From positions 7,440,001 through 7,504,000 of the forward strand of contig JAWMAR010000062.1 in NCBI GenBank assembly GCA_036785375.1: a stretch of DNA of 64,000 nt. The letters are read 5' to 3'. Shown here piece by piece: positions 481-40,504 of this stretch (position 1 is its first letter; every line of letters starts with the position of its first letter). Below the pieces are notes generated by a model that worked only from the letters and a program-made list of their open reading frames with translations, did not search any database and was not told the DNA's origin. Source of the DNA: Leucoraja ocellata (lineage: Eukaryota). The position numbers and the translations under genes are program-made.

Positions 481-980
481 GTGCCTCAGTCGCTCGGGCC
501 CGGTGGGCTGGCAGCTCAGTCGTTCGGGCCTGGTGGGCTGGCAGCTCAGTTGTTCGGGCCTGGTGGGCTGGCAGCACAGTCGTTCGGGCCTGGTGGGCTG
601 GCAGCACAGTCGTTCGGGCCTGGTGTTCTGTCACCTCAGTTGCTCGGGCCTGGTGTTCTGTCACCTCAGTCGCTCGAGCCTGGTTAGCTGGCAGCTCAGT
701 CACTCAGGCCTGGTGGGCTGGCAGCCCAGTCACTCGGGGCTGGTAGGGCTGGCAGTCGACCTGCTCACGGTTGGTTGGGCTGGCAGCCGTCTCGCTCACG
801 GCTGGTAAGGCTGGCAGCCGACTCACTCACGACTGGTAAGGCTGGCAGCTGACTCACTCACGGCTGGTGGGCTGGCAGCTGACTTACTCACGGCTGGTAA
901 GGCTGGCAGTTGACTCAAGGCTGTTGGGCTGGCAATTGACACTCACGGCTGGTGAGCTGGCAGTTGACTAACTTGTGGCT
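481..980. repeat. ~30-bp minisatellite (ggcagctcagtcgttcgggcctggtgggct and variants)
   Basis: Directly visible tandem units; they explain the repetitive ORFs at 368-808. Confidence 0.9.
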
Positions 981-1338
981 GGTGGTCACACACACACCCT
1001 CCATCTCACACACACACCCGCCATCAAACACTCACACTCCATCTCACAGACACACACACTCCATCTCTCAGACCCACACACTCCATCTTACAGACACACA
1101 GCCACCATCTCACACACACACACCATCTCTCAACATTCATCACACACTCTCATACACAACATATATATGACAGTAAAACTCTCTGGAATCTACTCATGCG
1201 GTTGAGCGCGGCCTCTCCCCTGAGCGGGACTTCCGCAGTGAGCGGGACTTCTAGAATGAGTGCGACATTCAGTTCAAGCAGCACAATTTGCAGACCAACA
1301 CTTCAATTCAGTTCAAGCAGCATAGTGCAGACTCACAG

Positions 1339-1388
1339 GTTACACAGAAAAGCTGGAGAAACTCAGCGGGTGCAGCAGCATCTATGGA
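1339..1388 (-). mobile_element. Short Penelope-type terminal fragment with 12-bp TSD
   Basis: gcagactcacag flanks the insert at 1327-1338 and 1389-1400; the insert matches 49303-49354 and 51454-51547. Confidence 0.65.
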
Positions 1389-1713
1389 GCAGACTCACAG
1401 TTCAGTTAACTCACAGCGTAGACGCACAGTTCTGGACTCAACTCTCACTCATGGTCTTCTGGGATGACTGACTGACGTCCAGGGCTTTATTCTCCTGGCC
1501 CCCCGGTAGGGACGTTGCCTTCATCATGGTGACTGATGAGAAGACCAACATGCTGATCTCATGATTTTTTAAACATTCATAACTTTTTTATTATTTCACC
1601 GATGGAAAAAAAACTTGGGGCGGTTGGAGGAGCGGACGGTGAGTAAGATGGTAAAAATTCATAGCAATGTAGGGTAACGTTTTTCTAAAATCTATATACA
1701 ACATACACAGGAA

Positions 1714-1939
1714 TGCCCCTGTCCCACTTAGGGAACCTGAACGGAAACCTCTGGAGACTTTGCGCCCCACCCAAGGTTTCCCTGCGGTTCCCGGAGGTTG
1801 CAGGTGGTTGCTGGAGGTTGCAGGTAGTGGAGGCAGGTAGGGGGACTGACAAAAACCTCCAGGAACCTCACGGAAACCTTGGGTGGGGCGCAATGTCTCC
1901 AGAGGTTTCCGTTCAGGTTTCCTAAGTGGGACAGGGGCA
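1714..1939. mobile_element. PIF/Harbinger-type MITE
   Basis: Long TIRs TGCCCCTGTCCCACTTAGG...CCTAAGTGGGACAGGGGCA; 3-bp TSD GAA at 1711-1713 and 1940-1942; inserted into a Helitron. Confidence 0.85.
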
Positions 1940-2723
1940 GAAGTGTTCAAGATGAGACTTTTAGTAATAGTATAGATAGTGATGGTGCCGATTCAACAGA
2001 TCTTCTATGCAGTAACCATTCTATGTTTCTACAGAGGTAATATAGATGTACATCCAACCCCTCTGGAGGGGTTGTGGGATGTTATATTTTCAGAGCATGT
2101 TTTAATTTGGTGTGAAATTTTATAGAATTGTTTATAAAACAAAATAAATACTGAAAAACTTTGCACAAATCGATGCAATAATATTTTAGCAAACAATAAT
2201 TACAATATTTGTAAGTCATGAATCAATATGAATGTATTTTTGCAGGCTTCAATAAATTACAAAAGCCATGTCCTTCGTACAATGTTTATTGATTGAAGCA
2301 TCCAGTTCATCTCAGTGAAGATGCAACACAAATTTATATAATTGGATATGAGTTCATTATATTTTATGTTTGCAAATTATATCAAAATAGATCTAGAAGA
2401 TTGTAAAAGTGATCTGGTTAGGTGGTAATCCATGCTATAAGAAGATAGATTACATGACGACCACTTGTTTATGCCGTGTTATGCTAAAAACAATTATCAT
2501 CTGTTTCCATGAACACTCACAGGCAGCATAACTAACAAAAATTTGCCAATTCATTCTTCTGCCATGCTATTACTTATTTCCTATACATCTGCCAGCCAAC
2601 ACGGGCTGTTATTTTGTTGGCAATGCAGCTACTGATACCAGTTGTTTGCATTACTTTCTTGTGTGTGAAGAAAGTGCATGAGTTGTATGAGACCAAATTA
2701 AGTTATTGGACAAGTTAGCTATT

Positions 2724-2888
2724 GATGTTTCGGGTAGAGCCCTTCTTCAGCCCTCGGTCTGAAGAATTGTAATGACCCGAAACGTCACCTATTCATTCTA
2801 TCCAGAGATGCTGCCTGTTCCACAACGTTACTCCAGCATTTTGTGTCTATCTTCGGTGTAAACCAGCATCTGCTGTTCCTTCCAACAC
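2724..2888. mobile_element. Penelope-derived terminal element with divergent pair of hammerhead-like motifs
   Basis: Minus CTGAAGAAGGGCTCTACCCGAAACATC (2724-2750); plus CTGAAGA...GAAACGTC (2759-2786); followed by the same 3' tail as 33130-33232. Confidence 0.7.
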
Positions 2889-3030
2889 ACTAACTGTTTT
2901 ATGACCTTTGGTCACTTGGTTGATAAGACCACACAAAAATAAGTAATCCATACCAGAAGCAGTTTGTGTTGGTTCCCAATCTGTGCTCAGTTACCATGGC
3001 ATATCTATTATCAATTATTTTTAGAAATCA

Positions 3031-3115
3031 CTAGACTAAGTGGGGCCCATTGGGTCCTAGCATCACACGGGAGGGCTGGTCATCCAATGCAATATTCCAC
3101 CTCTCCACAATTCCA
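3031..3115 (-). mobile_element. Solo Helitron family A 3' end
   Basis: Minus strand ...GGACCCAATGGGCCCCACTTAGTCTAG|T; homologous to 16560-16623 and 30860-30948. Confidence 0.7.
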
Positions 3116-3154
3116 GATGTAAAAAACAAAGGTTTTCCTCCAGCTTAAATCTTG

Positions 3155-3770
3155 TTTAGTTTATTATTGTCATGTGTACCGAGGTACAGTGCAAAGGTTT
3201 TTATTGTACTATTTAGTCAGCAAAAAGACTATACCTGATTAGAATCAAGCTGTCCACAGTGTACAAATACAGGATAAAGGTAATAGTGTTTAATGCAAGG
3301 TAAAGTCTGATTGAAGACAGTTCAAAGATCTCCAAAGATGGGAGGTCAAGACCACTTACTAGTTGATGAGACGATGGTTCAGTTGCATGATAAAAGCCGG
3401 GGAAACACTATCCCTCAGTCTGGACAAGGGTCTCAACCCGAAACGTCACCCATTCCTTCCATCCAGAGATGCTGCCTGTCCCGCTGAGTTACTCCAGCAT
3501 TTTGTGTCTATCTTTGGTGTAAACCAGCATCTACAGTTCTCTCCTACACAGCAGCTTAGTTTAGTTTAGTTTATTGACGCGTGTACCGAGGTACATTGAA
3601 AACCTTTTTTTGCGTGCTATGCAGTCAGCAGAAAAACAATACATAATTACAATCATATATTAATACAATTAATGCATTCAATCCAATTAATGTATATTAA
3701 TTAATACAATAATACAATTATATAGATAATACATAATTACAATTGAGCCATTCGCAGTGTATAGATACTC
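3155..3770 (-). mobile_element. Rex1-type LINE 3' fragments interrupted by a Penelope-type terminus (3415-3550)
   Basis: Homologous to the 6980-7260 3' UTR; (tttag)n tails. Confidence 0.6.
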
Positions 3771-4867
3771 CTACCTAACCCAAATCAAGACGCCCTTAAG
3801 GTCACAAATGACGGATACCCATCTAGAAGATCAGCTGAAACTGCGTACCTCCATGTTGCAACCAAATATTCAAATGCTTTCCCACAAAAAGCAGTCACAA
3901 CAAAATCATTAAAAGATTAGTTAACTTTTTAACAAAATGATTTCATTTTCTTGAAGTTAGTACATAGTAATTAGATTTTTACAAAATAATGGACATTTTG
4001 AAGTATATCTAATTGAAGTTTCTTGGATGTGGCCTTATTAGATTACAGCTAACTTAATGCGGCATTCCAACATGATAAGATTCCCCACCCCTGAGCTAGA
4101 CCATATTCCTCATTTTAAGGCTGGCAAATGAACACTTCCAGGCTGCTGATTTGATGATGGGTTGAAGGCAGTGAAGCTCAAGCTTTCAAATCCTGGCATG
4201 GGATCAATGTTGCAGCATTTTACCCCCAAATTTAATCAACATGTCCGTCCTGATATTTTCTTGAGCCGATATGACTGAGGTAGATTAATAAGACTACAGA
4301 ATATTTATCTATCCCTCCGCACCCTAGTCCTCTGCACCCTTCACCCACAACCCCTTTACTGCACAGCTTCTACAATAGTCATTAAATCCTTTGCACATCT
4401 AAGACTTTAATTACCAGTGGAGTTTCAAATTCAGTTATTTGTAATGTATTGATTCAGCCTTTGGAAAAGTTAATGGACGTGTCATTAATTGTTTTTGCTC
4501 AGTTATTTTTCACATTGCATTTCAAAGTAACACTTCAAATATTAAGTCTCACTTGAGGCTTTTTAATATTATAATTCCAAGCTTTAGTTCATTATGAAAG
4601 ACAATACCTTTTACCCTTAAGCCACCAATCAATTTAGAAAAGCTGCAAGTTTTCAAAAAACAGATATAATGATTTTTGCACAGCTTGTTCTAGGTCAAAA
4701 AGACTGAGGAAGTAATTGGATACTTTCCAAAAAGAACTTTGTCATCTTTTTTTAATCAAAGGTGGGTGGCAAAATTCTTCAGAACCTTCAAGTTAATGCA
4801 GTTTTATGAATGCTTGAATAAGTTCACATTACATTACAGAGGGAATATTGTTCAGGAACAAGCTATG

Positions 4868-5065
4868 GAGACACAAGAGACTACAGATACTGGAATCTTG
4901 TGCAAAATACAAAGTGCTGTAGGAACTGCAGATCAGGAAGCATCTGAAGAGGGTATGGGCAGGTGACATTTTGGGCTGTGACAATTTTTCAGAAATATTG
5001 CCTATCCATTCTCTCCCCAGATGCAGCCTGACCTGTTGAATTCCTCCAGCACTGTGCTTTGTTCA
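4868..5065. mobile_element. Old palindromic Penelope-type terminal element
   Basis: Two inverted degenerate copies of the gatgctgcctgac...ctccagca tail. Confidence 0.5.
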
Positions 5066-5559
5066 AAAACGGATTACTTGGCCAAGCAAAATTGTGCTGC
5101 TCTTGATCCAGATAAACATCATCTTATTCCTTCTACCACATCTCAGCATTTCAACAACACTTTCTACTATTTGTTCTCCAAAGTGCCTATATAGTTTATT
5201 TTGAAAGGATCCAAGTTATTAGTCTCAATCATCTCTGAAGATAGTAAATCCCATTCATTACCATAAAGAATTTACAGATAATTTCCAAATTAATTTATTA
5301 ATCATCATTTCATTTTTTAATTTCTGACAAACCCTCTTTAATCTGAAATGTTAGCTTTATTTCTCTTCCCACAGATGTGGGCTGATCTGCTGAGTATATC
5401 TTTAGAATTTCCAGCATCTGCAGTTTAGTTTTATTTTCACTTGTTCTTTTATAATCCCTAGTTTTCAATTCTCCCACAAGTCATTGGCATTGACTCAGTG
5501 CAATCTGAGAAGTCTGTGTAGTCACCTCTAACTCTTCTCTTTTTTGAAGGAGAAGGTCA

Positions 5560-5885
5560 TGGAGAGAAGTACGGAATGGAAATAGGCTATTATGCTCACT
5601 GTTTATCCAACCTATCAACCAAACTCACTTTAATCCCAATATTTATTGGCCCCAATATTCTCATCAACTTTCTCCAGTATCTATCACTCATCAACACTAC
5701 AGGCAATTTGCAGTTGCCAGTAACCTACAACCTTCATGTTTTTGCAATGTGTGAGGAAACCAGAGCACCCAGAGAAAAACTCAATCACGGAAGAACATGC
5801 AAACTCCAGAAAGACTGTACTCAAGACTAGGATTGAATTAAAGCCCCTGGATCTGTTAACAACATCTCTACTAGCTGCACCACTG
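5560..5885 (-). mobile_element. Degenerate V-SINE/HE1-like SINE
   Basis: Collinear with the SINE at 52846-53157. Confidence 0.55.
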
Positions 5886-6790: not shown

Positions 6791-6828
6791 AGGCAATGGC
6801 CACAAAAGGGAAACACTTCCTTTGTGCG

Positions 6829-6970: not shown

Positions 6971-6979
6971 ACATATTGA

Positions 6980-10609: not shown

Positions 10610-13513
10610 AAGAGAGGGTGGGTTTCTTAAATGTGTATATTTTAATGCTAGGAGCATTGTAAGAAAGGTGGATGAACTTAGTGCCTGGATTGACACCTGG
10701 AAGTATGATGTTGTGGCGATCAATGAAACATGGTTGCAAGAGGGCTGTGATTGGAAACTAAATATTCCAGGATTTTGTTGCTTCAGGTGTGATAGAATTG
10801 GAGGGGCAAGAGGTGGAGGTGTTGTATTGCTTATCAGGGAAGATATTACAGCAGTGCTTTGGCAGGATAGATTAGAGGGCTCGTCTAGGGCGGCTATTTG
10901 GGTGGAACTGAGAAATGGGAAAGGGATAGCAACACATAGGGGTGTATTATAGACCACCAAATGGGGAGCGAGAATTGGAAGAGCAAATAGGTAAGGAGAT
11001 TGCCGATATTAGTAGTAAGCACAAGGTAGTGATTGGGGGAGATTTCAATTTTCCACACATAGACTGGGAAACACATTCTGTAAATGGGCTGGATGGGTTG
11101 GAGTTTATAAAATGTGTGCAGGATAGTTTTCTGCAGCAATACATAGAAGTACCTACTAGAGAAGGGGCGGTGCTGGACCTCCTGTTAGGAAATGGGATGG
11201 GTCAGGTGGCAGAGGTATGCATTGGGGAACAGTTCGGGACCAGTGATCATAATACCATTAGTTTCAATTTAATTATGGAGAGGGTCAGAACTGGACCTAG
11301 GGTTGAGATTTTTGATTGGAGAAAGGCTAACTTTGAGGAGATGAGAAATGATTTAAAAGGAGTAAATTGGGAGAGTTTGTTTTATGGGAAAGATGTAGAA
11401 GAGAAATGGTGGACATTTAAAGGTGAAATTTTAAGAGTACAGAATCTTTATGTCCCTGTTCGGTTGAAAGGAAATAGTAAAAATTGGAAAGAGCCATGGT
11501 TTTCAAGGGAAATTGGACACTTGGTTCGGAAAAAGAGAGAGACCTTCAATAATTATAGGCAGCATGGAGTAAATGAGGTGCTTGAGGAGTATAAAGAATG
11601 TAAAAAGAATCTTAAGAAATAAATTAGAAAAGCTAAAAGATGATATGAGGTCGCTTTGGCAAGTAAGGTGAAAGTAAATCCAAAGGGTTTCTACAGATAT
11701 ATTAATAACAAAAGGATAACGAGGGTTAAAATTGGTCCATTAGAGAGTCAGAGTGGACAGCTATCTGCAGAGCCAAAAGAGATGGGGGAGATATTGAACA
11801 ATTTATTTTCTTCGGTGTTCTCCAAGGAGAATGATATTGAATTATGTGAGGTAAGGGAAACAAGTAGTGTAGCTATGGAAACTATGAGATTCAAAGAAGA
11901 GGAAGTACTGACACTTTTGAGAAATATAAAAGTGGATAAGTCTCCAGGTCCGGACAGGATATTCCCTAGGACATTGAGGGAAGTTAGTGTAGAAATAGCA
12001 GGGGCTATGACAGAAATATTTCAAATGCCATTAGAAACAGGAATAGTACCGGAGGATTGGCGTACTGCGCATGTTGTTCCATTGTTTAAAAGTGGTCTAA
12101 GAGTAAACCTAGCAATTATAGACCTGTTAGTTTGACGTCAGTGGTGGGCAAATTAATGGAAAGGATACTTATAGATAATATATATAAGCATCTGGATAAA
12201 CAGGGTCTGATTAGGAACAGTCAATATGGATTTGTGCCTGGAAGGTCATGTTTGACTAATCTTCTTGATTTTTTTGAAGAGGTTACTCGGGAAATTGATG
12301 AGGGTAAAGCAGTGGATGTTGTATATATGGACTTCAGTAAGACCTTTGACAAGGTTCCTCACGGAAGGTTGGTTCAGAAGGTTCAATTGTTGGGTATTAA
12401 TGGTGGAGTAGCAAGATGGATTCAACAGTGGCTGAATGGGAGATGCCAGAGAGTAATGGTGGATGGCTGTTTGTCAGGTTGGAGGTCAGTGACTAATGGG
12501 GTGCCACAGCGATCTGTGTTGGGTCCACTGTTGTTTGTCATGTACATAAATGATCTGGATGACGGTGTGGTAAATTGGATTAGTAAGTATGCAGATGATA
12601 CTAAGATAGGTGGGGTTGTGGATAATGAAGTAGATTTTCAAAGTCTACAGAGAGATTTATGCCAGTTGGAAGAGTGGGCTGAAAGATGGCAGATGGAGTT
12701 TAATGCTGATAAGTGTGAGGTGCTACATCTTGGCAGGACAAATCAAAATAGGGCGTACATGGTAAATGGTAGGGAATTGAAGAATGCAGGTGAACAGAGG
12801 GATCTGGGAATAACTGTGCACAGTTCCCTGAAAGTGGAATCTCGTGTAGATAGGGTGGTAAATAAAGCTTTTGGTGTGCTGGCCTTTATAAATCAGAGCA
12901 TTGAGTATAGAAGTTGGGATGTAATGTTAAAATTGTACAAGGCATTGGTGATGCCAATTCTGTAGTATGGGGTACAATTTTGGTCGCCTAATTATTGGAA
13001 GGATGTCAAAACAATAGAGAGAGTACAGAGGAGATTTACTAGAATGTTGCCTGGGTTTCAGCAACTAAGTTACAGAGATAGGTTGAACAAGTTAGGGCTT
13101 TATTCTTTGGAGCGCAGAAGGTTAAGAGGGGGCTTGATAGAGGTCTTTAAAATTATGAGAGGGATAGACAGAGTTGACGTGGATAAGCTTTTCCCACTGA
13201 GAGTAGGGAAGATTCAAACAAGGGGACATGACTTGAGAATGAAGGGACAGAAATTTAGGGGTAACATGAGGGGGAACTTCTTTACTCAGAGAGTGGTGGC
13301 TGTGTGGAATGAGCTTCCAGTGAAGGTGGTGGAGGCAGGTTTGTTTTTATCATTTAAAAATAAATTGGATAGTTATATGGACGGGAAAGGAATGGAGGGT
13401 TATGGCCTGACCGCAGATAGATGGGACTAGGGGAGAATACGTGTTCGGCATGGACTAGAAGGGTCGAGATGGCCTGTTTCCGTGCTGTAATTGTTATATG
13501 GTTATATGGTTAT
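10610..13513 (+). mobile_element. CR1 (HER1-like) LINE, ORF2 APE endonuclease + RT, inactivated
   Basis: FNARSI, ETWL, YRPP, GDFN, SDH, NYRP, QYGF, GVPQ and YADD motifs across ORFs 10668-13430; stops at 11620, 11641 and 12963 plus frameshifts; (gttatatg)n tail. Confidence 0.95.
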
Positions 13514-13682
13514 AAAATTGGGCCAGGTATCTGTGCATTCCTCTGGTTACATTGTTTGGCAAAGATGCTGAATTTATTTCAGTAAGCATCTGCTAGACAG
13601 TGCATGCCATTGTGAATTTGTGGAATTCAGCCCATAACCACAATTTGATGATGGTACTGCCAGTTGAAATCCTATACTCCTT

Positions 13683-14207
13683 CATAGATACAAAGGTACA
13701 TAGAAAATAAGTGCAGGAGAAGGCCATTCGGCCCTTCACGCCATTCAATGTGATCATGCCTGAACATCCACAATCAGTACCCCATTCCTGCCTTCTCCAC
13801 ATATCCCTTGATTCCACTAGCCCTAGGAGCTCGATCTAACTGTCTTTTGGATGCATCCAGTGAATCGGCCTCCACTGCCTTCTGTGGCAGAGAATTCCAC
13901 AAATTCACAACTCTCTGGGTGAAAAGCTTTTTCCTCTTCTCAGTTCTAAATGGCCTATCCCTTTTTCTTCAACTGTGCCCCTGGTTCTGAACTCCCCCAA
14001 CATCAGGACATGTTTCCTGCATCTAGCGTGTCCAATCCCGTAATAATCTTCTATGTTTCTATAAGATTTCCTCTCATCCTTCGAAATTCTAGTGAATACA
14101 AGCTCAGTCATTCCATTCTTTCATCACATGACAGACCCGCCATCCCAGGAATTAACCTTGTGAACCAATGCAGCACTCCCTCAATAGCAAGAATGTCCTT
14201 CCTCAAA
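13683..14207 (-). mobile_element. CR1 LINE 3' fragment (family of 60462-63656)
   Basis: Reverse complement of ~63130-63650. Confidence 0.9.
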
Positions 14208-15051
14208 ATCATTGAGAACTTAATCTCACAAGGTGAAACACCAATTTATCAGCGGACCCCGGAAGGTGCTACATCAAAGGATCACCAATGTTAGTTGCGG
14301 TTCATATTCCTCTAGCTTTTGCCGAAATCCCACCAGTTTATGGTGCTTTCACAAGTGGTTTCAAGCTACTGAAGAGCACATGGAGTGATGTGTGGGTAAA
14401 TGAGGACATCTTCCTGAGTCCCAAAACTGATTTCAAGGCTTCATAGCACTAATGTTCATCATGCGGCGGCGGGCCTGGCCACCCCAAAGAAGGCCCCGAC
14501 GGAAGAAGACATGCAGCAGCCCAGTGCTTACCTGGGCTTACCTGGGTCAAGGGTGCTCCTGTACATCCAGCATATAAACTGGACTTCTGACTTTTCTTTT
14601 GCAAATAGTTCAAAAATATGGCAACAGGTGCAAATATTTCACTGTGCAGTGCGTAGGTGACAATAAAGAACAATTGGACCATTAATAAACCAATAGTTAC
14701 TCTATCAGATAATGCTTGACGTCCTGACAAATATCATAGAATCAACCTGACCTTCAGTTCCTAAAATCCACACTTAACATCAAGTGCTCATCTATGTAAT
14801 TAAAAGTCTCATCTTGACCACTTCCTGTCTGCGCTGTATATTGATTTTAGAATAAACACTACCCTGTATCGCTGTGGTTTTTGGCCATCTTACTCACAGT
14901 CCTCCTCCGCTGAACCAGCCCCAAGGATTTTTCCCATCGATGAAAAATAAAAAAATTATGAGTGTTTAAAAAAACCTTGAGATCAGCTGATTGGTCCTCT
15001 CGCCTGATAATCACTGCAATTAAGGTAATGCTCCTTCTAGGGGGGCAGGAG

Positions 15052-15095
15052 TATAAAACATAAAACCCCGGATGCCTGGACATGAGTCAGTCACT
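15052..15095 (+). promoter_or_regulatory. TATA + Inr-like core promoter in Helitron A
   Basis: TATAAAA at 15052, duplicated as CATAAAA at 15059; TCAGTC with the A at 15089. Confidence 0.4.
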
Positions 15096-15780
15096 CTGCA
15101 AGATCGCGAGGGAGAAGTCACAACTGTCATTCTAAACTGTGAATCAACTGAAATGTGAGTCTGCAATGTATTTGCAATAAATTATTTGTTAGCCCTTAAT
15201 GACAATGCCATGAGTTGTTTGGCCTGCTGCCCTGCCTGTGCTTGAAACTGCAATGCTTTATTTGGTCCGACTGTGTTTGGAAGGAATAAATGCTTTATTA
15301 GGTCCGACTGTGTTTGGAAGGAATAAATGCTTTAATAGGTCCGACAGTGTTTGGAAGGAATAAATGCTTTATTAGGTCCAACTGTGTTTAGTCCAAAATT
15401 CCCTTTCATTTTGTGACTTCCGCTTAGTGACAGGTCGCACTGATTGCGTAATATCGGGTAAGTGCAGAGGTCACGCTGATTGCGTAATTTCCGGTAAGTG
15501 TAGAAGTCACGCTGATCGCAGAAGTGCCGATGACTGCAGAAGCCCCACAGTGGAAAGGCCGGCTCAGCCATGTGAGTAGATTCAAGAAAGTTTACTGTCA
15601 TATATCTGGTGTGTGAGTCATTGTGTGTGTGAGTGTGTGTGTGCGTATGTGTGCGTATGTGAGTGTATGTATGTGAGTGTGAGTGTGTTTGTGTGTGTGA
15701 GTCTGTGTGTGTGTGTGTTAGTGTATCAGTGTGTGTGCGAGTGTGTGTATATTAGTGTGTGTGAATGTAAGTGTGTGTCA

Positions 15781-16200
15781 AGAGTCAAGAGTCAAGAGTC
15801 AATTTATTTGTCATTTGGACCCCTAGAGGTCCAAACGAAATGCCGTTTCTGCAGCCATACATTACACACAAATAGACCCAGACACAACATAATTACAATT
15901 TTACATAAACATCCATCACATAGCTGTGATGGAAGGCCAAAAAAAACTTATCTCTCCACTGCACTCTCCCCCCCCCCCGATGTCAGAGTCAAAGTCAAAG
16001 CCCCCGGCTGGTGATGGCGATTGTCCCGCGGCCATTGAAGCCACGCCGGGTGGTGCGAGGTCGCACACCGGGTCTTGGTGTTGGAGCCCCCGGTGTGCGC
16101 TCGTAAAGTCCCGCAGCCGTTCCAGCCGCGCGGGGCAATGGTGTTAGGCCCTGCATCAGGAGCTCTTCGACCCCGCAACTCGGGCGGGAGAATTCGCCAT
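15781..16200 (-). mobile_element. GC-rich non-autonomous retroelement, 3' part
   Basis: Reverse complement of 33240-33570; (tcttgac)n tail; inserted in the Helitron TG tract. Confidence 0.65.
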
Positions 16201-16558
16201 NNNNNNNNNNNNNNNNNNNNNNNNNNNNNNNNNNNNNNNNNNNNNNNNNNNNNNNNNNNNNNNNNNNNNNNNNNNNNNNNNNNNNNNNNNNNNNNNNNNN
16301 NNNNNNNNNNNNNNNNNNNNNNNNNNNNNNNNNNNNNNNNNNNNNNNNNNNNNNNNNNNNNNNNNNNNNNNNNNNNNNNNNNNNNNNNNNNNNNNNNNNN
16401 NNNNNNNNNNNNNNNNNNNNNNNNNNNNNNNNNNNNNNNNNNNNNNNNNNNNNNNNNNNNNNNNNNNNNNNNNNNNNNNNNNNNNNNNNNNNNNNNNNNN
16501 NNNNNNNNNNNNNNNNNNNNNNNNNNNNNNNNNNNNNNNNNNNNNNNNNNNNNNNNNN
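16201..16558. other. Assembly gap
   Basis: Run of N. Confidence 1.
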
Positions 16559-17211
16559 ATATTGCGTTGGGGGACCAGCCCTCCCGCGTGAAGCTGGGAC
16601 TCAATGGGTCCCACTTAGTCTATTCCTTACTAATCCCATTTCTTCTCTCACATCTCCATCCCCTCCTAAATTCTACTGCCATCTCCACCTTCAGTCATAT
16701 AAAGTGTAAACTCTGCATAGACCACATACAAGGACCAGATGAGACCTGGGTGGGTGGTTCTGGGAGGCAACAGTGCTAACCACTGTGCCATTGTGCTGGG
16801 GCAAGCTGCCACATTCACTCCAGATTCTGCATATATCCACTGTGCCATGTACATTTGACTCACACGCAGGCACAAAAATAAATGGGCAATATTGTGGGTT
16901 AGTGATGACCTAGCGACTGACCCACATACATACAAAATGCACACAATGGAAGTTATGTTGCCATGTGTGTGAAAGGCAGAGCCATGGTGTGCTGAAGTTG
17001 CCTGAACTGCTCGGAGGGAACAATGAAGTATTTGTTGAAGTGCATGTGAAGATTCTGTTTGTTATGCAGCACAGGCATCATACCAGGAAACTATTTGGCA
17101 TCAGCTAGACACATGCAGCTCTGAAAAGAGGAGGAGGGGGTGAAATAGGAAGCAGGCAATCAAGGAAACCCCCTTTTGGTTTAAGTTGCCGGAGCAGAAG
17201 TCATCTGATTA

Positions 17212-17785
17212 TCTATATAATTACAAGTCTAAACTTGACCACTTCCTGTTTGCACTCTATATTGATTTTAGAAAAAAATGCTACTACTTACGGCTGTGAT
17301 TTTTGGCCATCTTACTCAGAGTCCCCCTCCAGCTGTCAGGGCAAGAGGATTTTTCCCATCGATGAAAAAGAAAAGACTTATTAATGTTTAAGTTTGTTGA
17401 GATTCTCTCCTGTCAATCACGCCATGAAGGCCACACCCTTTCCGGTGGGAGGGGGAGGGACTATAAAACCCGTAAGTGTGGATGTGCCTCAGTCGCTGCA
17501 AGATGGGTGAGCGAGAGGTCACAGATCTCTGTCTGAGCTGTGAATCAACTGAACACTGAACACATGTGTACTAAACTGTGAGTGTGGTTTTACTGACCTG
17601 TGAGTGCCCTTAATTTAGTTTGAAAATGAAGTTTGAAAATGAAAATGTGGTTGGTTTGAAAAGAAAATGTGGTTTGTTTGAAAAGGCATATGTGGTTGTT
17701 TTGGGGTAGAGCGGTAAGGGGGTGGGGGAGAGAGCGATGGGGGTGGGAGAAGTATGGGGAGGAGAGGAAGAGGGGTGAGGAGAGG
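17212..17785 (+). mobile_element. Helitron family A 5' part
   Basis: A|TCTATATAATTACAAGTCTAAACTTGACCACTTCCTG; closely similar to 28218-28620; cut by a CR1. Confidence 0.75.
17446..17496 (+). promoter_or_regulatory. GC-box/TATA/Inr-like core promoter in Helitron A
   Basis: GGGAGGGGGAGGG, TATAAAA at 17462, and CTCAGTC with the A at 17491 (29 nt downstream). Confidence 0.5.
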
Positions 17786-18272
17786 GAAACATAGAAACAT
17801 AGAAATTAGGTGCAGGAGTAGGCCATTCGGCCCTTCGAGCCTGCACCGCCTTTCAATATGATCATGGCTGATCATCCAACTCAATATCCTGTACCTGCCT
17901 TCTCTCCATACCCCCTGATCCTTTTAGCCACAAGAGCCACATCTAACTCCCACAAATATAGCCAATGAACTGGCCTCAACTACCTTCTGTGGCAGAGAAT
18001 TCCAGAGATTCACCACTGTGTGAAAAATGTTTTTCTCATCTCGGTCCTAAAAGATTTCCCCCATATCCTTAAACTGTGACCCCTTGTTCTGGACTTCCCC
18101 AACATCGGGAATAATCTTCCTGCATCTAGCCTGTCCAGCCTGTTAAGAATTTTGTAAATTTCTATAAGATCCCCCCTCAATCTTCTAAATTCTAGCGAGT
18201 TCAAGCCGAGTCTATCCAGTCTTTCTTCATAAGACAGTCCTGACATCCCAGGAATCAGTCTGGTGAACCTTC
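17786..18272 (-). mobile_element. CR1 LINE 3' fragment (another CR1 piece at 19005-19080)
   Basis: RFTRLIPGMSGLSYEERLDRLGL...; (catagaaa)n tail. Confidence 0.92.
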
Positions 18273-18289
18273 CTCCCCCCAACCCCCCG

Positions 18290-19004
18290 GTTATTCAAAA
18301 GACATAGAAAGAAAGAACGTCGGGCCCTGTACTCACCCTGGGTCGGCGCATGATGGGGAGGCTGCTGCCAAAGGCAGAGGCCAGCGAATGGAGCTGGAGC
18401 TGGAGCTCGTGCTAGAGCGGGAGTATTGCATTCGGGAACTAGTGACACCGCATGTCCCCCCCACCCTCAAACTCTACCCTTCTCCCTCTCTGCCCACCCA
18501 CCCCTCAAACTCTACCTCCGCTCCCTCTCTGCCCCCCTCCCTCTCCCTCTCTGCCCCCCAGCTCTGCCCCCGATCCCTCTCAGCCAACCCACCCCCTCTG
18601 CTTCTGCCCTCTTCCCTCTGACTTCTGCCCTCTGCCTCTGCCCCCCGCCCTCCCTCTGCCCCCGCCTTTCCTCTGCCCCCACCCTCCCTCTGCTCCTGCC
18701 CTCTCTCTCCCTCTCCCTCTCTAGCCGTGCCTGCGAGTTGAGGGCTATGTGTGAGTGGATATGGTGGGGAATGAGGTAAATGGAGCGAATATNNNNNNNN
18801 NNNNNNNNNNNNNNNNNNNNNNNNNNNNNNNNNNNNNNNNNNNNNNNNNNNNNNNNNNNNNNNNNNNNNNNNNNNNNNNNNNNNNNNNNNNNNNNNNNNN
18901 NNNNNNNNNNNNNNNNNNNNNNNNNNNNNNNNNNNNNNNNNNNNNNNNNNNNNNCGCCGCAGGCTGCCCCCCCCTTGCAACTGTGCACTGTGGGGACGGG
19001 ACGG
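18290..19004 (+). mobile_element. Helitron family B internal/3' fragment
   Basis: Collinear with 31250-31975: captured GC segment, CT-rich tract and ctagccgtgcctgcgagttg motif; gap at 18793-18954. Confidence 0.65.
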
Positions 19005-23560: not shown

Positions 23561-23564
23561 GCAT

Positions 23565-26175: not shown

Positions 26176-26179
26176 ATGG

Positions 26180-27794: not shown

Positions 27795-28659
27795 GGTTAC
27801 TCAAGAGGAAGAATGAGAAATTCCCATTACCCACATAAAATTGTGCAAATGACGATGTATTTATTATTATATATCTCGTGCACAAAAATGATGTAAATTA
27901 TGTAAATATTACCATGAATGACGGAAATAAAAAGTGTTTTCCTTGTTTATGAATTTAGAATTATTTGAAATTGTGGGGGTTGGTGCAATATACTGCTGAC
28001 CCACAAATGTGTCATTATGAGACATTAACAATTTTAAAATCCATGTCTCAAAAAAAAGCAAGAAGGTCTGCATGTTATTTGACCAACTTATCGGCTGAAT
28101 TTAAATATGTAGGTATGTATGCACTACATTGTATTACACTAATATAGAATGAAAGAATGGAAAAATATGTTGACATTGTGTTCATGGATATTTCATTCAC
28201 AATATTAGGATTTCATAACTATATAATTAAAAATCTAAACTTGACCTCTTCCTGTTTGTGCTGTATATTGATTTTAGAAAAAAATCACTCCCACTTACAG
28301 CTGTGATTTTTGGCCATCTTACTCAATGTCCCCCTCCCTCTCATCAGGTGTAGAGGGTTTTTCCCATCGATGAAAAATAAAACTTATTAATGTTTAAAAA
28401 ATGTTGAGATTCTCTCTCCTGTCAATCACGCCACATAGGCAACACCCATTCCGGTGGGAGAGGGAGGGATTATAAAACCGAGAAGTGTGGATGTGCCTCA
28501 GTTGCTGCAAGATGGGGAGGGAGAGGCCACGACTCTCAAGCTGAGCTGTGAATCAACTGAACACTGAACGCATGTCTACTAAACTGTGAGTGTGGTTTTA
28601 TGTGGTTTTATGTGGTTTATTTGGAACTGTGTTTGGAAGGAATAAATGTTTTTATGTGC

Positions 28660-28920
28660 CTTTAAACTGTGCCTTTTAACTGTGCCTTTTAACTGTGCCT
28701 TTTAACTGTGCCTTTTAACTGTGCCTTTTAACTGTGTCTTTAAACTGTGCCTTTAAACTGTGCCTTTAAGCGGTGCCTTTAAATGGTGCCTTTAAACTGC
28801 CTTTTAACTGTGGCTATTGGAACTGTGCGGCTAATTGTAAATTGTGCGGCTATTGAAAATGTGCGGCTATTGAAAATGTACGGCTATTGCAACTGTGCGG
28901 CTCTTGCAACTGTGCGCCTT
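28660..28920. repeat. 13-bp (aactgtgcctttt) minisatellite grading into ~16-bp units
   Basis: Directly visible. Confidence 0.9.
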
Positions 28921-29639
28921 TGGCAGGAATAAACGCTTTATTAGGTCCGACCCTGTTTAATGCAAAAGTCCCGCTCATTTCGTGAATTCCGCTTAGTGGA
29001 CAGGTCAGGCTGATTTCGTCATTTCCGGTGATTGCCAAGGTTGTGCTGAATGCGGAAGTGTTGCTGACTGCGGAAGGCGCAAGTGGAGATGCCGCGCTCA
29101 GCCGTTTGAGTATTGAAAAAAGTTTATTGCCATATATATGGTGTGTGTGTGTCTTTGTGTTTGTGTGAGTGTCAGTGTGTCTTTGTGTGTGGCTGTGTGT
29201 GTGTCTGTGTGTCTGTGTGTCTATGCGTGTGTCTGTGCGTGTGTCTGTCTGTGCATGTGTCTGTCTCTGTGCGTGTCTGTGTATAAGTGTGTGTGTGTGT
29301 GAGTGTCTGTGTGTGTGTGAGTGTCTGTCTGTCAGTCTGTCTGTGTGTCTGTCTGTGCCTGTGAGTGTGTGTTTCTATGAGTGTGTGTGTGTGTCTGTCT
29401 GTGTGAGTGTGTGAGTGTCGGTGTGAGTGTATGAGTGTCTGTGTGAGTNNNNNNNNNNNNNNNNNNNNNNNNNNNNNNNNNNNNNNNNNNNNNNNNNNNN
29501 NNNNNNNNNNNNNNNNNNNNNNNNNNNNNNNNNNNNNNNNNNNNNNNNNNNNNNNNNNNNNNNNNNNNNNNNNNNNNNNNTTGAGTGTATGTGTCTGTGT
29601 GTGAGTATATGTCTGTGTGTGTGTGAATGTATGTGTGTG

Positions 29640-29882
29640 CACTCTGCTTAAAATGCTGTGAAATTGGATTTGCTGGCCTGCACTCCGCTTGGTGCTGTGA
29701 GGTTGGACTTTCTGCCTACACTCTGCTTGGAGTGCTGTGGGATTGGACTTCCTGTCTGCACTCTGCTTGGAGTGCTGTGAGGTTGGACTTGCTGCCTGCA
29801 CTCTGCTTGGAGTGCTGTGAGGTTGGACTTGCTGCCTGCACTCTGCTTCAAGTGCTGTGAGATTGGATTTCAGGCCTGCACT
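29640..29882. repeat. 40-bp minisatellite (ctctgcttggagtgctgtgaggttggacttgctgcctgca)
   Basis: About six units; preceded by a TG-rich tract at 29140-29640. Confidence 0.9.
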
Positions 29883-30948
29883 GAATTATGATGTTGGAGG
29901 CAAATTCTCAGATTTTCTTTTTTTTAATTTGACCGCCAAATCTCTCTATATTAAAATGGTCTTTTTTTTAAAAATCAACAGCAAAGCATCATCAAGAGGC
30001 CATGAGCAGCAGAACACAACAATAGCCACAACAAGAAAGAACTTAATAAATCTCAACTTTAACATTTAAATTGTTGTTATATTTTAAGAGTCATTCACAT
30101 TTTAAACTTTAATAAATCCTTTTTCCACTTGCCATGCCTGCATGTTCTTCATCACAATGGGAACCTAATAGGCAGGAATGGCTGCACTGTCGGAGAGCCA
30201 ATGGGGGGAGGTTGAGGGGAGATGGACTGAATGCATGGGAGGGAGGGGAATGGCAAGGAGCAGAGTGGAAGGTGAAGTGAGGAGGGGTGACTCAGTTTAT
30301 GCCATCACACCAGCCATGAGTGACTGCGCTGCCAGTCCACCAGCCATGAGTAAGTGAACTGCTAGCCCACCAGCTGTCAGTGACTGAAGTGCCAGCCCAC
30401 CAGCCATGACTCACTGAACTACAAGTCCACAAAACCATTCAGCCAACAATATCCATACTAGCCCTCTGGAAACCAGTCCCTTCAGCGCACAACACCCATA
30501 CTAGCATTCCAGAGATCCACGCAAGGATAGACTTTCCTCCTTCATTGCTGTGATCTGTAAAAAAAGATGAAAATGTCTAAAATGTCTAAAATTCCTCAGC
30601 TGCCAGCCTGCCAGGCCTGAGTTACTGAGCTGCCACCCTGCCAGGCATGAGTTACTGAGCTGCCAGGCCTGAGTGACTGTGCTGCCAGGCCTGAATGACT
30701 GAGCTGCCAGGCCTGAGTGACTGAGCTGCCAAGCCTGAGTGACTGAGCTGCCAGCCCAAGAATCCATTTGGCCCACAATGTCCATGCTAACCCTCTGGGA
30801 GCCAGTCCCTTTGGCCCACAGCACCCATACTAGCGCTCCAGAAAGTCCCCCACCCCCCACTGGCCAGCAATATTGGAATTGGTGGAGAGGTGGAATATTG
30901 CATTAGGGGACCAGCCCTCCCATGTGATGCCAGTCCCAATTAGTCTAG

Positions 30949-32000
30949 TAACTATTAAAAGTCTGATCTTGTATGTGGATTTGTTTTTCTGTTATTACAA
31001 AATCAGCTAAACTCTACGTGGTAACGATAAAATGTTTACATATTTCGGTAGACATTTTTTCCGTGGAGTCCAAAATCAACCTTATCTGAAAATTTCATGC
31101 TTTATTTCTCAAGATTACTGAAAATATTTAAAAATCCTTTTAAAATTCAAAACTTTGAATTAAAAAATGACTGCCTTTCGCTGATGACGTCACAATGGGT
31201 CTGCTCTGCATGCCGTCTTCCTCGTGCTGCGAGTGACGTCACCCCTCCTCAAAAGACGCAGAAAGAACGAGCAAGTCAGGCCCTGTACTCATCCCGGGTC
31301 GGCGCATGGTGGGGAGGTTGCTGCCACAGGCCGAGCCCGGCGACTGGAGCTGGAGCTGGAGCTAGAGCGGGTGAGTATTGCATTCGGGAACCAGCTCCCC
31401 CTGTGACATCATGCCCTCCCCCCACCCCTCAAACTCTATACTGCTCCCTCTCTTTCCCTCCTTCCCCTCAAACTCTACCCCCCTCTCTCTCTGCTCCCCC
31501 CGCTCCCCCCGCTCCCACTCTGCCACCCCCGCTCCTTCTCAGCCCCCCTCCCATTCCCTCTCTGCCCCCCCTCCCTCCCTCTCAGCCCCCCGCCCCCTCT
31601 GCTTCTGCCTCTGCCCTCAGCCTCTGCCCTCGGCCCTCTGCCCTCTGTCTCTGCCTCCGTCTCTGCCCTCTGTCTTTTCCCTCTGCTCTGCCCTCCCTCT
31701 GCCCCCGCCCTCCCTCTGCCCCACCCTCCCTCTGCTCCCACCCTCTTTCTGCCCCTGCCCTCTCTTCCTCTCCCTCTCTAGCTGTGCCTGTGAGTTGGGG
31801 GCTATGCGTGAGTGGATGGGGTAAATGGAGCAAATTAATAATATTAATGTAATATGAAGGTGGCATGTTTTTAGTGTGTGTGTGTGTGGGGTGGTTAGTG
31901 CGTGTGTGACGCCACAGGCAGCCCACCCCCACCCCCCTCCCCCTCCCCCCCACAACCGTGCATTGTGGGGACAGGACCTAACGGGTCACACTTGGTCTAG
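30949..32000 (+). mobile_element. Non-autonomous Helitron-like element, family B
   Basis: 5' ...attaaaagtctgatcttg directly after the family A CTAG; 3' GGACCTAACGGGTCACACTTGGTCTAG|T at 32000; two TGACGTCA sites. Confidence 0.75.
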
Positions 32001-33232: not shown

Positions 33233-33239
33233 TTAAACA

Positions 33240-35545: not shown

Positions 35546-35569
35546 ATAAAACAGCATTCATTCAAATAA

Positions 35570-37050
35570 CATTGAAAATAAACGAGATGGTCTCACTGAT
35601 GATGTCACAATGGATCTGACTGCCTGCCTCTGCTCACGCTGCGAGTGACGTCACCCCTGTTCTGTCTTCTGTACTTCTTGGCTTCTTAACTTTCACTTCT
35701 TTAAATTTGTCACTTAGTGGTTTTAAACTGCTGCTCAGGTCATGCTGTGCGTTCTGCTGGGCTCCTTGAAGTTCTAGAACATGGCGTCGGCGGTCGTTAT
35801 CACTGCGCTGGCGTGGGGCAGCCAAGTGGGAAGGTGGCCGTGGCAGCCATTACTCCCTCTGGGAGAGGCCGTCTATGGAGACCTGCGATTCCTCTGTCGA
35901 TTGCAGGGACTCGGGGAATCGTGATGCCTTTTCCTCGCTGGTGATCCCAATTCCACCTGGCTATCCCTGGCCATCACGGGTGACGACCTCGCTCCGTCTC
36001 CCCTGTCTGATCATCTGTCATGCGGGTGGGTGTGCTTCCCCCCGCGGAAGCCATGATCGGCTGGCCCTCCACTGCTTTTGATCGCCCTCAGATCGCACCC
36101 GCCCGTGGCCTCCCTCGAGTCTCCGCCATCTGCTCAACGTGGGCCCAGAAGCCTGCTCACCCACAGCCTGCTCAACCACCTGGCTCCCCTCCTCCTCTCT
36201 CCCCTCCTCCTCTCTCCCCCCTCTCTCCCCCCCCTCTCTCCACCACATCCTATCTCCCCCTCCTCTCTCCCCCTCCTCCTCTCCCCCTTCTTCCTCTCCC
36301 CTCATCCTCTCCCCCTCCCCTCTCCTCCCCCTCCTCTCTCCCCCCCTCCTCTCTCCCCCCTCTCTCCCCCCCCTCTCTCCACCACATCCTATCTCCCCCT
36401 CCTCTCTCCCTTCAACCCCCCTCTCCCCCTCTCTCACCCCCTGCCCCCTCTCTCACCCCTCCTCTCTCTCCTCCTCCCTCTCTCACCCCTTCCCCCCTTC
36501 AGCTCGGCCCGGGCCCCCCCCCTCACCCCCTCTCTCTCTCCCCCACTCTCTCTCCCCCTGCTATCTCTCCCCCTTTCTCTCTCTCCCCGCTCTCTCTCTT
36601 CCCCCGCTCTCTCTCCCCTGCTATCTCTCCCCCTTTCTCTCTCTCCCTGCTCTTTCTCCCCCTCCCCCCTCTCTTCCCCCCCTCTCCCCCTCTCTTCAAC
36701 CCCCCACTCCCTCCACTCCCCGCTCTCTCTGTCTCTGCCCTCTCTCTCTTTGCCTCTCTGTCTCTGCCCCTCTCTGTCTGTCTCTGCCCCCTCTCTCTCT
36801 GCCCTCGCTCTACACCCCCTCCCCCTCCCTCTCTAGATGCGCCTGTGAGTTGGGGAGTGGATTGGGCGGGGATGAGGTAAAAGGAGTGAATGAATAATAT
36901 TAATATAATATCAAGGGGTTGGTTAGTGTGTGTGGGGGGGCGGGGGAGGTGGGGGTGGGGGGCAGTATTTAGTATGTGCGTGACACCACAAGCCCCCCCA
37001 TCGCAACTGCGCGTCGAGGGGAAGGACCCAATGGGCCCCACTTGGTCCAG
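35570..37050 (+). mobile_element. Helitron family B copy with a different captured segment
   Basis: Shares ctgatgatgtcacaatgg...gcgagtgacgtcacccct with 31180-31245; 3' GGACCCAATGGGCCCCACTTGGTCCAG|T. Confidence 0.72.
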
Positions 37051-38749
37051 TGACCAATAAAGGTATGAATCATTTCTGGAACACACTGTGGACACGAGCC
37101 AGAATATCTGGTGATTTATAGAAATTCTCAAGTCCTATGTGCAACTGAACTCAAGTCTATCTGCCAATCTGTTCATTCACATCCATGCATTTGACATCAA
37201 GGGCCATAATGACAATCAATGGGACAGGGCCCAGCTTATTCAACTGATCTTATGAAGGGTTTCCTGTTAAAAGCTTCTGTTTTGCAGATAAAGCAGATAA
37301 GGCCCTTATCATCTGGCCATGTGGAAATAAAAAGCAATAAAAATTGACACTCCTGCATGCCAAATACAGAAGAGCAAACTAAAGGACTTTGAAATAGAGA
37401 TGTATCATTCAACCAGGTAGGACAGCATCTGTATAGAGGAAAAACTGAATCAACTTTTTAAGACAAAGATCGTTCATCAGTACTGATAGAAAATAACATG
37501 AACATTTAGCAGAAAAGTATCGTACAGTGTATGTGCATTCAGCAACCGAGTGAAAGGCCTTTGGTGCTTCCCACACGAATATAAACCTGTCATTAGGGTT
37601 TCAGAAGTAGCAGAAGATCGAAATAAAAAGAAAACATAAAATACTGGAGTAACTCAGCGGGTCTGGCAGCATCTATGGGGAACATGAACAAATTACGTTT
37701 TGGGTCATGACCTTCTGAGTTCTCACAGTGACGTGCTTAGTTTAGAAAACAAATATAGCATAGAGCAACTGAGATTAGAATGCTGGTGAAGGACAAGAAA
37801 TGGTTCTGTCCATATCTATTGCATAGAGATGATACCAGTTTTGCCCTGCTAATTGTAAGAACATTTGACTTTTGTGGTACTGAAATCATGCTTGTGGAAT
37901 GCTGCTCGGTGAAATTACTGTTTTAGGAACCATAGATTAGGCTGGTAAAGGATCCAACCTGAAACATTGTCTGTCTACTTAATTCCGCATAGGCAGCCTA
38001 ACTTGCTAAGTGGTTGATCCGTTTGGTTTTCTGCATTCAAATAAACGTCCCATATATATTAAATGCAGGAAAACGAAAGATCAATCTGAAGGACATGGGT
38101 CAAACGCACGCAGATGGGACTAGCTTAGATGTACTTTTTAGTCAGCATGAACTTGTGGGCTGAGGGTTGGGCAGAAGCGCCTATTCCTGTCCTGTACGAC
38201 TATGATTATGTATTTAATACTTCAGTAAAGGATCAACACCTTCATGAAAGATCAGTATAGCACGTAGTTGCCTCTGAATTGTCAGCTTGATCACAGTAGT
38301 GATGTTGACATCCTGTTGGAAGATCATATGAAAACAGTAACAAAAAGCAATACAATTTATATATCAAGCTGCAGCAGTGTTTGTGAAATAATTCAACTGG
38401 ACATTTTGAGGAATACATCTTTAATTCACTTTTATTCCGACTGTCTCATTGCAACATAAAAAAAACAGCAAACGTGACAAAATATGTAAAGCAAAAACTT
38501 CAATAAGAATTTTCTGTAAAAACAGAATCTACAAACAAGAAAAAATATTGGGTTTTCAAAGGGCTCCTGCTATTAACCAATAGTGGACTAAGGAAGTCCA
38601 AAACTAAGTCCTAAACTTAGGTAGTGGCAATGGCTTTCAGCAGTTTTTAATTTCCGTAGTGGGTAATGTTAAACATACCTTAACCCTCTCAACATTCAAC
38701 CTGACTCTTGGAGCCACTAAAGAACACAATTGCTTCACAGAGTGCATTT

Positions 38750-38846
38750 CAATAGACAATAGGTTCAGGAGTAGGCCATTCGGCCCTTCGAGCCAGCACC
38801 GCCATTCACTGTGATCATGGCTGATCATCCACACTCAGTACCCCGT
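38750..38846 (-). mobile_element. CR1 3' tail fragment
   Basis: Nearly identical to 41747-41842. Confidence 0.85.
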
Positions 38847-39656
38847 TTATTTTTTATCACTTTGCAAATAAATCATGTTTTCATGTTTATCACTTTGGAA
38901 TAAACCTTGACATATCCCAGTTAGTCTTTACCTTCCAAACTTATTGGTGTTTGTTGAACTATTCATAAATGTCTAAGCTACAGCGCAAGAAAGAGCTGCT
39001 TCTGCCAACATAGTTCTGAGGAGATACGTGCTAATAAAAATAATATAGAACAATTTCAAGCCTAACTATTTTTTAAGATGCTAGCTTCTATCTACATCTA
39101 TATATACATAACTAAAACTCTGATCTTGTGCTCTACCGATTTGCGAGGTTTTTCTATTTGTGCAAAAACTGTTTGCGATAGTGCTATGATATTTTGCCAG
39201 GTTAGTTAGCATTCACATGTGCTGTGAGTGCAACAAGTTTCATTCCAATCGGTGGTGTATTGTAAAAGGTATCGATGTTTAAAAATCTTAATAACCACGC
39301 TGCGCAGATTTCTTCGGTAAGCGCCATTCAATTGGTCTATTTTCCTGTCAGTCAATGCCACGACCGGGATGGTGACGCCCCTTCCTGCCCCACCAGTGGC
39401 GGTCTGTCCCCCTTCACTCACAAATTACACTCTCCCCTCCTCACAGTAACTTGTCTATCGTCTCCCCCCGCCACCGACGATAGCCACGGGGGGCGTTCAG
39501 TGGAGGTTCAGTGGAGGTCCAGTGGAGGGCCTTGTCCCGTCTCTCTCTCCCTCATCACTCACCCCTCTCCCCCGCCCACCCTCTGCGGCCATGGCGGTCC
39601 CGTCTACCCATCTCCCCGGTTCCGGCTCCTCCGCCGCCGCCGTTGCGGTAACTCAC

Positions 39657-39736
39657 CCTCACGGCGAGTTGGAGGAGATCTTCTCCACCAGCTCATCAAA
39701 ACACATGGTGCCCACTGTGACGAACACCGACTCCAC
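39657..39736 (-). pseudogene. ALG13: Captured ALG13 exon 1 fragment (UDP-GlcNAc transferase N-terminus)
   Basis: (V)ESVFVTVGTMCFDELVEKISSN-S-AVR|GTGAGT versus recalled human MKCVFVTVGTTSFDDLIACVSAPDSLQ; 80 nt versus 27 codons; GTG in place of ATG and a 1-nt deletion. Confidence 0.82.
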
Positions 39737-39943
39737 CCCCCCCCCCCCCCCCCCCCGCTGCAGCAGTGAGCAGGCAGGCAAGGGCTGAGCGGCAGCCGCA
39801 GACGGGCGGGTAGGGCAGGATGGGCCAAGTGGCAGCAGCAGGTGGAAGGACAGGATGGGCCGAGCGGCGGCTGAGCCCGAGTGAGGGAGGGAGGGAGAGT
39901 TGGGTTGCAGGGTGCCCGAGCAGTTTGCGTGGAGTTTGAGTAA

Positions 39944-40075
39944 TGGGCCTGTCCCGCTTGGGCGATTTTTCAGTGGTCTGCTGGTGACTGTCAAGTTGCC
40001 GGCAGTCGTCTGAGAAACCGGGAACTGGAAAGGCGACTGTCAGAGTGGAATACATACACACACACACACTTGCAT
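39944..40075. mobile_element. PIF/Harbinger MITE left end
   Basis: TAA|TGGGCCTGTCCCGCTTGGGCGATTTTT. Confidence 0.7.
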
Positions 40076-40504
40076 TGTTTTTCTATTTGCGCAAAAATGG
40101 TACATGATAGTGCTATGATTTTTCGCCACCTTACCATTCTCCTGTGCTGCAAGTGCAATAAGTTTTGTTCCGATCGATTTGCGATCTATATATAATTCTG
40201 ATCTTGTTATCTTCCAGTTTGCGTTGTCTTTCTATTTGCACAAAAAATGGTACATGATAGCACCACAGTCACCGGCGGCTGTCAGTCACTGACGGCGCCC
40301 GCCTCACCCGGCGCCTGAGTCGGTCAGCAGCGGCCAGAGGGGATGGTCACAGTTGCCGGAGGGCACAGCCACAGCCACCGGAGGACGCAGCCCACAGCGA
40401 GGAGAATATCCCAACGTGAAAGGGTAAGATGAAGGAGCGGAGTGAGTACTGGTTTATCACGTCTGTCGATTTGGTTCATGATATACATGCATAAGGGAGC
40501 ATGC

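Follow-up and report, generated by a model that had tools for sequence, protein, structure and literature searches.

A high-copy Helitron1 family of the skate Leucoraja ocellata and its probable preference for targets resembling its own left end

Helitron pieces in the window

We analysed a 64,000-nucleotide stretch of the skate Leucoraja ocellata genome (the window; contig JAWMAR010000062.1 of assembly GCA_036785375.1, given below as C62:7440001-7504000 of the 3.44 Gb genome G000), in which an earlier note had described a modular family of non-autonomous Helitron-like elements. Every coordinate named there for a 5' or 3' motif was recovered in the window sequence, and the motifs resolved into eight pieces: G, H, A, B, C nested in D, E and F. 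The 5' starts read A|TCTATAC at 1976(-), A|TCTATG at 14791, A|TCTATA at 17212, ACTATA with a changed first base at 28218, TAACTATT at 30949 and TCTATA at 39097. The 3' ends read CTAG|T at 3031(-), CTAT|T at 16623, CTAG|T at 32000 and CCAG|T at 37050, and the end at 30948 is CTAG|T with half of its hairpin deleted. The motifs at 1976(-) and 3031(-) belong to two separate truncated elements, not to one. Both ends lie within the window only in element A (14791-16623) and in the nested C/D unit (28213-32000); the 3' end is absent from B, F and G, the 5' end from E and H. Two stretches of N fall within elements A, B and C or at an element end. The pieces are as follows.

481-1976, minus strand: element G, a non-autonomous Helitron with intact 5' end and truncated 3' end; B-type 5' module, GT run, 30-31 bp satellite
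~1713-1943 and 1336-1390: inserts in element G, the former palindromic and like a miniature transposable element with inverted repeats (MITE), the latter short and like a short interspersed element (SINE)
3031-3145, minus strand: element H, an isolated 3' end with hairpin and CTAG|T; upstream part cut off by a retroelement tail
14791-16623, plus strand: element A, TC ... CTAT|T; B-type 5' module, 37-bp satellite, GT run; partly masked
15778-16200: separate repeat inserted in element A
17212-19002, plus strand: element B, a chimera of three segments; 3' terminus lost
17212-17702: element B, segment 1, B-type 5' module
17703-18272: element B, segment 2, inverted CR1-like 3' fragment with purine tract
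~18290-19002: element B, segment 3, D-type 3' half
28213-28217, plus strand: TCATA, the putative first five bases of element D, apparently left behind when C inserted
28218-30948, plus strand: element C, an internal-deletion derivative of family B autonomous elements (see below), with CTAG end; 5' region with predicted promoter, satellites of 13, 17, 40, 30 and 22 bp, post-stop 3' region from 29882
30949-32000, plus strand: element D (remainder), starting TAACTATTAAAAG right behind the CTAG of C; ends with hairpin and CTAG|T
35562-37050, plus strand: element E, 5'-truncated, ending CCAG|T; its subfamily begins TCTCTATACTTATAAAAC elsewhere
39087-40261, plus strand: element F, with stacked TC units at 39087, 39091 and 39097; no 3' end within the window
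Interior of element F: F-type to ~39945, then a MITE-like repeat, then a second F fragment at 40077-40261

The labels CR1, SINE and MITE are those we take to fit the sequence features of these repeats. The palindromic MITE-like repeat, with CCTGTCCC-type ends, occurs in the window at 1713-1943, ~21990 and 39945, and is inserted in elements G and F.

Ends, copy number and insertion without duplication

The ends of these pieces are abundant in the genome. A 27-bp right end gave 3,735 + 3,793 exact matches (7,528 in total), while the reversed control gave none, and one 131-bp left end gave 2,028 first-look candidates. The B-type left end started with TC in 29/30 loci; the base before it was A at 21, T at 6 and G at 2, and five of the six T-preceded starts are the inner starts of one composite. 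When right-end motifs were anchored on their inner part only, 55/72 finished in CTAG and 2 in CTAA, and the next base was T in 53/55 of the CTAG cases. The subterminal hairpin has a 7-bp stem and ends 11 nt before the element end, within the 10-15 nt that characterise Helitron1. Its form in the window family (GGGACCC-AAC-GGGTCCC) and in a young autonomous family described below (CAGACCC-AAC-GGGTCTG) differs by two compensatory pair changes. Folding of the window ends alone gave no significant z-scores (+0.8 to -1.4), and the hairpins there are weak or decayed.

No target site duplication (TSD) longer than 2 nt was found in 32 left/right end pairs, the longest being 0 nt in 18, 1 nt in 7 and 2 nt in 7. 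Meanwhile, empty-site homologues located in other repeats were contiguous at A|T without duplication at L093 (21 homologues), L171, L080, L019/L027 and L154; in the filled L019/L027 copies the left base is G. A first empty-site pass found 3/32 pairs, two of them self matches; a second pass examined 124 ends and printed 12, of which six were head-to-tail self matches and L193 was weak. The lack of TSDs and the A|T insertion reported in the earlier note were therefore borne out.

A collinear inverted copy of nearly the whole window lies 1.3 Mb away at G000:C62:8.74-8.80 Mb (L096-L102), with 95-99% identity (~98% on the whole). It is either a segmental duplication or an uncollapsed haplotype, and many other loci likewise form near-identical pairs on one contig. 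As a source of empty sites it was rejected, because it holds the same elements; where it loses most of element A and its flank, the right end is kept, which indicates a deletion rather than an empty site. The second copy also carries a LINE-like (long interspersed element) 3' fragment of ~630 bp (L100:225-1, L101:10000-9592), absent at window 46507-46514, with an 8-bp overlap resembling a target duplication.

With 5' TC, 3' CTRR, a subterminal hairpin, A|T insertion without TSD and RepHel partners having the same ends, the family shows the features of Helitron1 (HLE1). Helitron2 or Helentron (HLE2) elements, which have asymmetric or subterminal inverted repeats and a T|T target as given in the available parts of PMC11417382 and PMC5148889, do not agree with the TC/CTAG ends and A|T target found here. 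A transposon with terminal inverted repeats, or a MITE, was rejected as well, since the left and right ends are unrelated and TSDs are lacking. Hence, the window pieces are copies of a high-copy, non-autonomous Helitron1 family with resident RepHel partners, as the earlier note had proposed for the shared ends and high copy number.

Autonomous RepHel partners

The profile PF14214 matched 120 of 150 scored candidates, and many of these loci hold long open frames of up to 1,851 aa. In the young family (autonomous family A), 19/20 Rep cores share 98.9-100% identity with the first one. Its RepHel carries HUH and Y2 motifs together with PF14214 and PF05970 (PIF1) domains, and it matches the Helraiser structure 7lcc with an E value of 8.9e-129. 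The RepHel region is 100% and 97% identical to predicted proteins of Leucoraja erinacea (P0002, P0004), 76% to one of Rhinoraja longicauda (P0003) and 65% to one of the snail Physella acuta (P0005). These database relatives are annotated as uncharacterized proteins, and no description of the DNA family behind them was found in the literature searched.

The Physella acuta protein is the nearest non-skate relative of the L051/L052 RepHel, other animals reaching 36-48%; the snail-skate likeness is a possible lead to horizontal transfer. The RepHel open reading frame (ORF) at the L051/L052 locus (G000:C2153:36657-42208) spans 1,851 aa, and charged repeats of 23 aa are arrayed at its N-terminus; tandem non-autonomous units of ~470 bp lie on both flanks of the locus.

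A second, decayed autonomous family (B) shares 64% amino-acid identity with family A over 254 residues, and its copies are 92-97% alike. Its ends are those of the window elements: the copy at G000:C51:3174574-3181838 runs from A|TCTATATTACTAAAAG to GGGTCCCACTTAGTCTAG|T, and copies on C21 and C635 are further examples. The RepHel element with matching ends that the earlier note proposed to look for is thus present as degenerate family B copies, alongside the related young family with intact frames.

Origin of the interior modules

The interiors of the window elements share modules with each other and with autonomous elements. In element C, 1,955/2,605 unmasked bases align to 28 RepHel-bearing loci, part of this total being simple repeat, and the sequence from 29882 matches the stretch that begins at the RepHel stop codon of autonomous copies. 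Elements A, B and C have a TATA-like segment, TATAAAACCCGGAAGTG, that can be aligned to the 5' region of autonomous copies, in which a splice-donor-like site comes next; we predict that this segment serves the element as its own promoter. The 30-bp satellite is also present in the autonomous 3' region, and the element B segment at 17703-18272 is 88-91% identical to a segment in the 3' region of young family A. D, E and F each represent a high-copy subfamily of their own, whose ends are of the same kind. A CR1-like 3' fragment was observed in the 3' region of the young family (L052:1895-2380 and similar loci), repeated in several modules per locus.

The earlier note had read the different interiors as cargo and proposed that the family shuffles promoters, exons and satellites, which amounts to capture of host promoters and exons. 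Such capture is documented for Helitrons (in the parts available of PMC4778049 and PMC12001565), and two observations are compatible with it here: the CpG-rich 5' interiors of D, E and F, and likewise parts of A and G, gave no alignment to the 28 RepHel-bearing loci tested, and the CR1-like fragment in the young family is captured or inserted non-Helitron DNA. Against it, autonomous copies have the promoter-like and 3' segments as parts of their own, a Pfam scan of 15 interior ORFs in the frames covered gave no match, and the best 18 matches of interior E were all further family copies, with no lone donor among them. No host exon was found inside the elements in a search limited to this window. 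We therefore consider host capture unlikely as the source of the modular build. The modular architecture claimed earlier stands, but a host origin of promoter and exon cargo found no support in this window, the TATA-like promoter, 3' segment and satellite being those of autonomous elements. Nor are the interiors unrelated, since modules are common to different elements and autonomous copies. The exchanged modules appear to be mostly Helitron parts, with later retroelement and MITE-like insertions.

A motif downstream of the insertion point

The motif T-N5-8-TA(A/T)A was observed behind 2,465/3,735 forward-strand exact right ends, while it occurs at 5.0% of 24,060 AT sites in the fetched loci. 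It follows 4/5 of the right ends in the window. Element H matches an autonomous end in locus L108 at 90.6%, and its flank fits the motif too. Among 23 distinct non-family flanks (30 unselected loci minus 6 flagged family starts and 1 duplicate, one of the 23 being by eye also a family start), 19 carried it, compared with 3.7 expected at matched AT content and a maximum of 12 in 10,000 shuffles. In the right flanks the base at +1 is T and A peaks at +10/+11 (40 and 47 of 59 non-family flanks), and TA(A/T)A starts most often at +8 (24/59). Since the motif is already present in the empty-site homologues, it is older than the insertion. The left end of the family itself matches this motif a few bases in.

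It might be argued that the motif reflects the generic AT-rich preference known from Helraiser, with the count inflated by TATA microsatellite-like sites. Helraiser does favour AT-rich DNA, mostly 3' of the insertion, according to the part of PMC4778049 available, and the flanks here are AT-rich over +1 to +12. However, the matched background and the shuffles stay well below 19 of 23, and TA(A/T)A starts peak at +8, with T at +8 and A at +10/+11. We regard this explanation as improbable.

Head-to-tail junctions and nesting

D-type starts number 183 in the genome. Of 30 examined, 22 come immediately after a right end, these ends being of four or more types, and the remaining 8 have TC 4-5 nt upstream. 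Free D-type starts elsewhere read TCATA-TAACTATT. In the window, TCATA stands before C and the rest of D after it, and the second copy of the window has the same arrangement, as expected if C inserted at TCATA|TAAC.

A stricter junction pattern gave 314 + 291 (605) head-to-tail junctions in the genome. Twenty head-to-tail loci showed chains of up to four modules, with stacked TC/TCTA units at the outer start. The upstream and downstream units were 69-86% alike in 9 of these loci and had no match within 4 kb in 11. At least two stacked TC units were present in 18/26 starts with a module following and in 14/45 solo starts (Fisher p=0.003), in a crude comparison that included duplicates and false starts. 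Composites can also move as a whole: the two-start composite L019/L027 moved as a unit into a CR1-like repeat. The subfamily L005, L018, L019, L027 and L028 has two 5' modules and one 3' end, with T before the inner start, and was amplified as a unit.

Head-to-tail units could alternatively be rolling-circle concatemers or circle-junction products joined imprecisely, instead of targeted insertions. Tandem arrays and head-to-tail junctions have been reported for Helitrons (PMC5876387, as far as available), short tandem units stand beside young autonomous copies, and some dimers are of the same type (L192-L195, L208); this origin would also account for junctions that miss only TC. In contrast, Helraiser circle junctions are described in the available part of PMC4778049 as precise TC/CTAG, while a precise CTAG|TC was observed in 2/100 of the junctions listed here and the other 98 were imprecise. 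In addition, the joined partners are of different end types and at best 69-86% alike, and the same motif is found in non-family flanks and empty sites. We regard concatemers as an unlikely origin.

Other features of the window

At 10930-14205 and 60978-63670 lie two LINE copies in a decayed state, whose ORFs of 230-320 aa resemble endonuclease and reverse transcriptase. A GC-rich minisatellite array (35-bp + 55-bp) at 48626-49237 has no link to the Helitron family.

Discussion

The modular build of this family probably arises from a transposase preference for targets similar to the left end of the elements themselves. As these left ends read TC(T/A)TA...TAAAA, new copies would land inside the 5' ends of older copies, and the mixed-and-matched look would come from elements inserting into each other's starts because the insertion-site motif resembles the left end. 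In the proposed sequence of events, autonomous elements would lose the RepHel frame by internal deletion while keeping both ends, the promoter and the satellites. RepHel acting in trans would then nick targets ~6-8 nt upstream of TA(A/T)A, and new copies would land 2-5 nt inside the 5' ends of older ones. To the left of such an insertion TC/TCTA/TCATA would remain, while the junction to its right would read CTAG|TA.... Later rounds might start at the outermost TC or read through the inner right end, and composites, chains and stacked (TCTA)n starts could spread as new subfamilies. Available portions of PMC4778049 and PMC5876387 describe Helitron1 RepHel as nicking the left end and stopping at the hairpin, which it sometimes reads through.

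While the ends, the copy number, the duplication-free A|T insertion and the partners were observed, as were the motif and the imprecise junctions between different end types, the choice of left-end-like targets, the nesting and the re-mobilisation of composites are likely readings of them. The wider proposal, that a vertebrate Helitron transposase reads a target like its own left end, nicking 6-8 nt upstream of TA(A/T)A, and that the family thereby targets itself and builds chains and subfamilies by nesting, is put forward tentatively, with the odds slightly against it.

Several points weigh against targeting of left-end-like sites. The motif is missing behind 34% of right ends, and it was defined after the flanks had been viewed, so only the genome-wide count is independent. 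An AWAT control was also frequent (1,277/3,735), and it overlaps TATAT/TAAAT, so this control is not independent of the motif; the family start seen by eye in the 23-flank sample and the crudeness of the stacked-TC comparison count here as well. Many junctions read CTAG|TATATTACTAAAA; compared with the left end seen most often they miss only TC, and unless the recipient start was longer this implies a target of C|T instead of A|T. The upstream partners L232 and L233 have no leftover TC. No intact family B frame was seen among the 9 regions inspected, so the RepHel that moved the window copies is one that we infer. Furthermore, many loci are near-identical pairs, so the counts overstate the number of independent events, and all of the evidence comes from old fixed insertions, which are open to shaping by selection and decay.

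The family is an ordinary, very abundant Helitron1 radiation, and what is new is the proposed target rule with self-nesting, a modest and testable addition. A left-end-like target, if true, would explain both the choice of sites by Helitron transposases beyond A|T and the origin of composites with exchanged ends. It would also call for caution in reading a modular interior of a Helitron as host cargo, and it would bear on the use of Helitrons as gene-delivery tools. The young skate family, whose long open RepHel frames (up to 1,851 aa; 99% identical) occur naturally, makes target choice directly testable.

Comparison with known Helitrons

Among the paper listings and text passages searched, none dealt with Helitrons of skates or with a target motif resembling the left end, and none with Leucoraja erinacea together with Helitrons; figures and supplements could hold a similar logo. 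PMC9409754 and PMC13286980, in the parts available, give the A|T preference and nothing further on the target. The Heli1Xen1 element of Xenopus laevis (PMC12001565) is, like the skate family, a young vertebrate Helitron1 with an intact ORF and many non-autonomous copies; as described in the available text it has host coding-sequence fragments, whereas none were found in the skate window.

The closest likeness in structure is to bat Helibat1-Helraiser and HelibatN1-3 (PMC4778049, PMC5876387; 7lcc), which, in the portions available, share the 5' TC, 3' CTAG, subterminal hairpin and A|T insertion without TSD, and also have a RepHel partner, an AT-rich 3' flank and several non-autonomous subfamilies. 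Unlike Helraiser as described there, its Fig. 5a logo being left aside, the skate family has TA(A/T)A at a preferred position and apparently inserts often into its own left end. The Fusarium FoHelis (PMC5148889) differ, as far as that paper was available, in having Helitron2-type ends and few cases, with no tie to a left-end-like target motif. Nevertheless they resemble the skate family in their composites: self-insertion gave several 5' termini with one 3' terminus, and the resulting elements moved from the outermost start.

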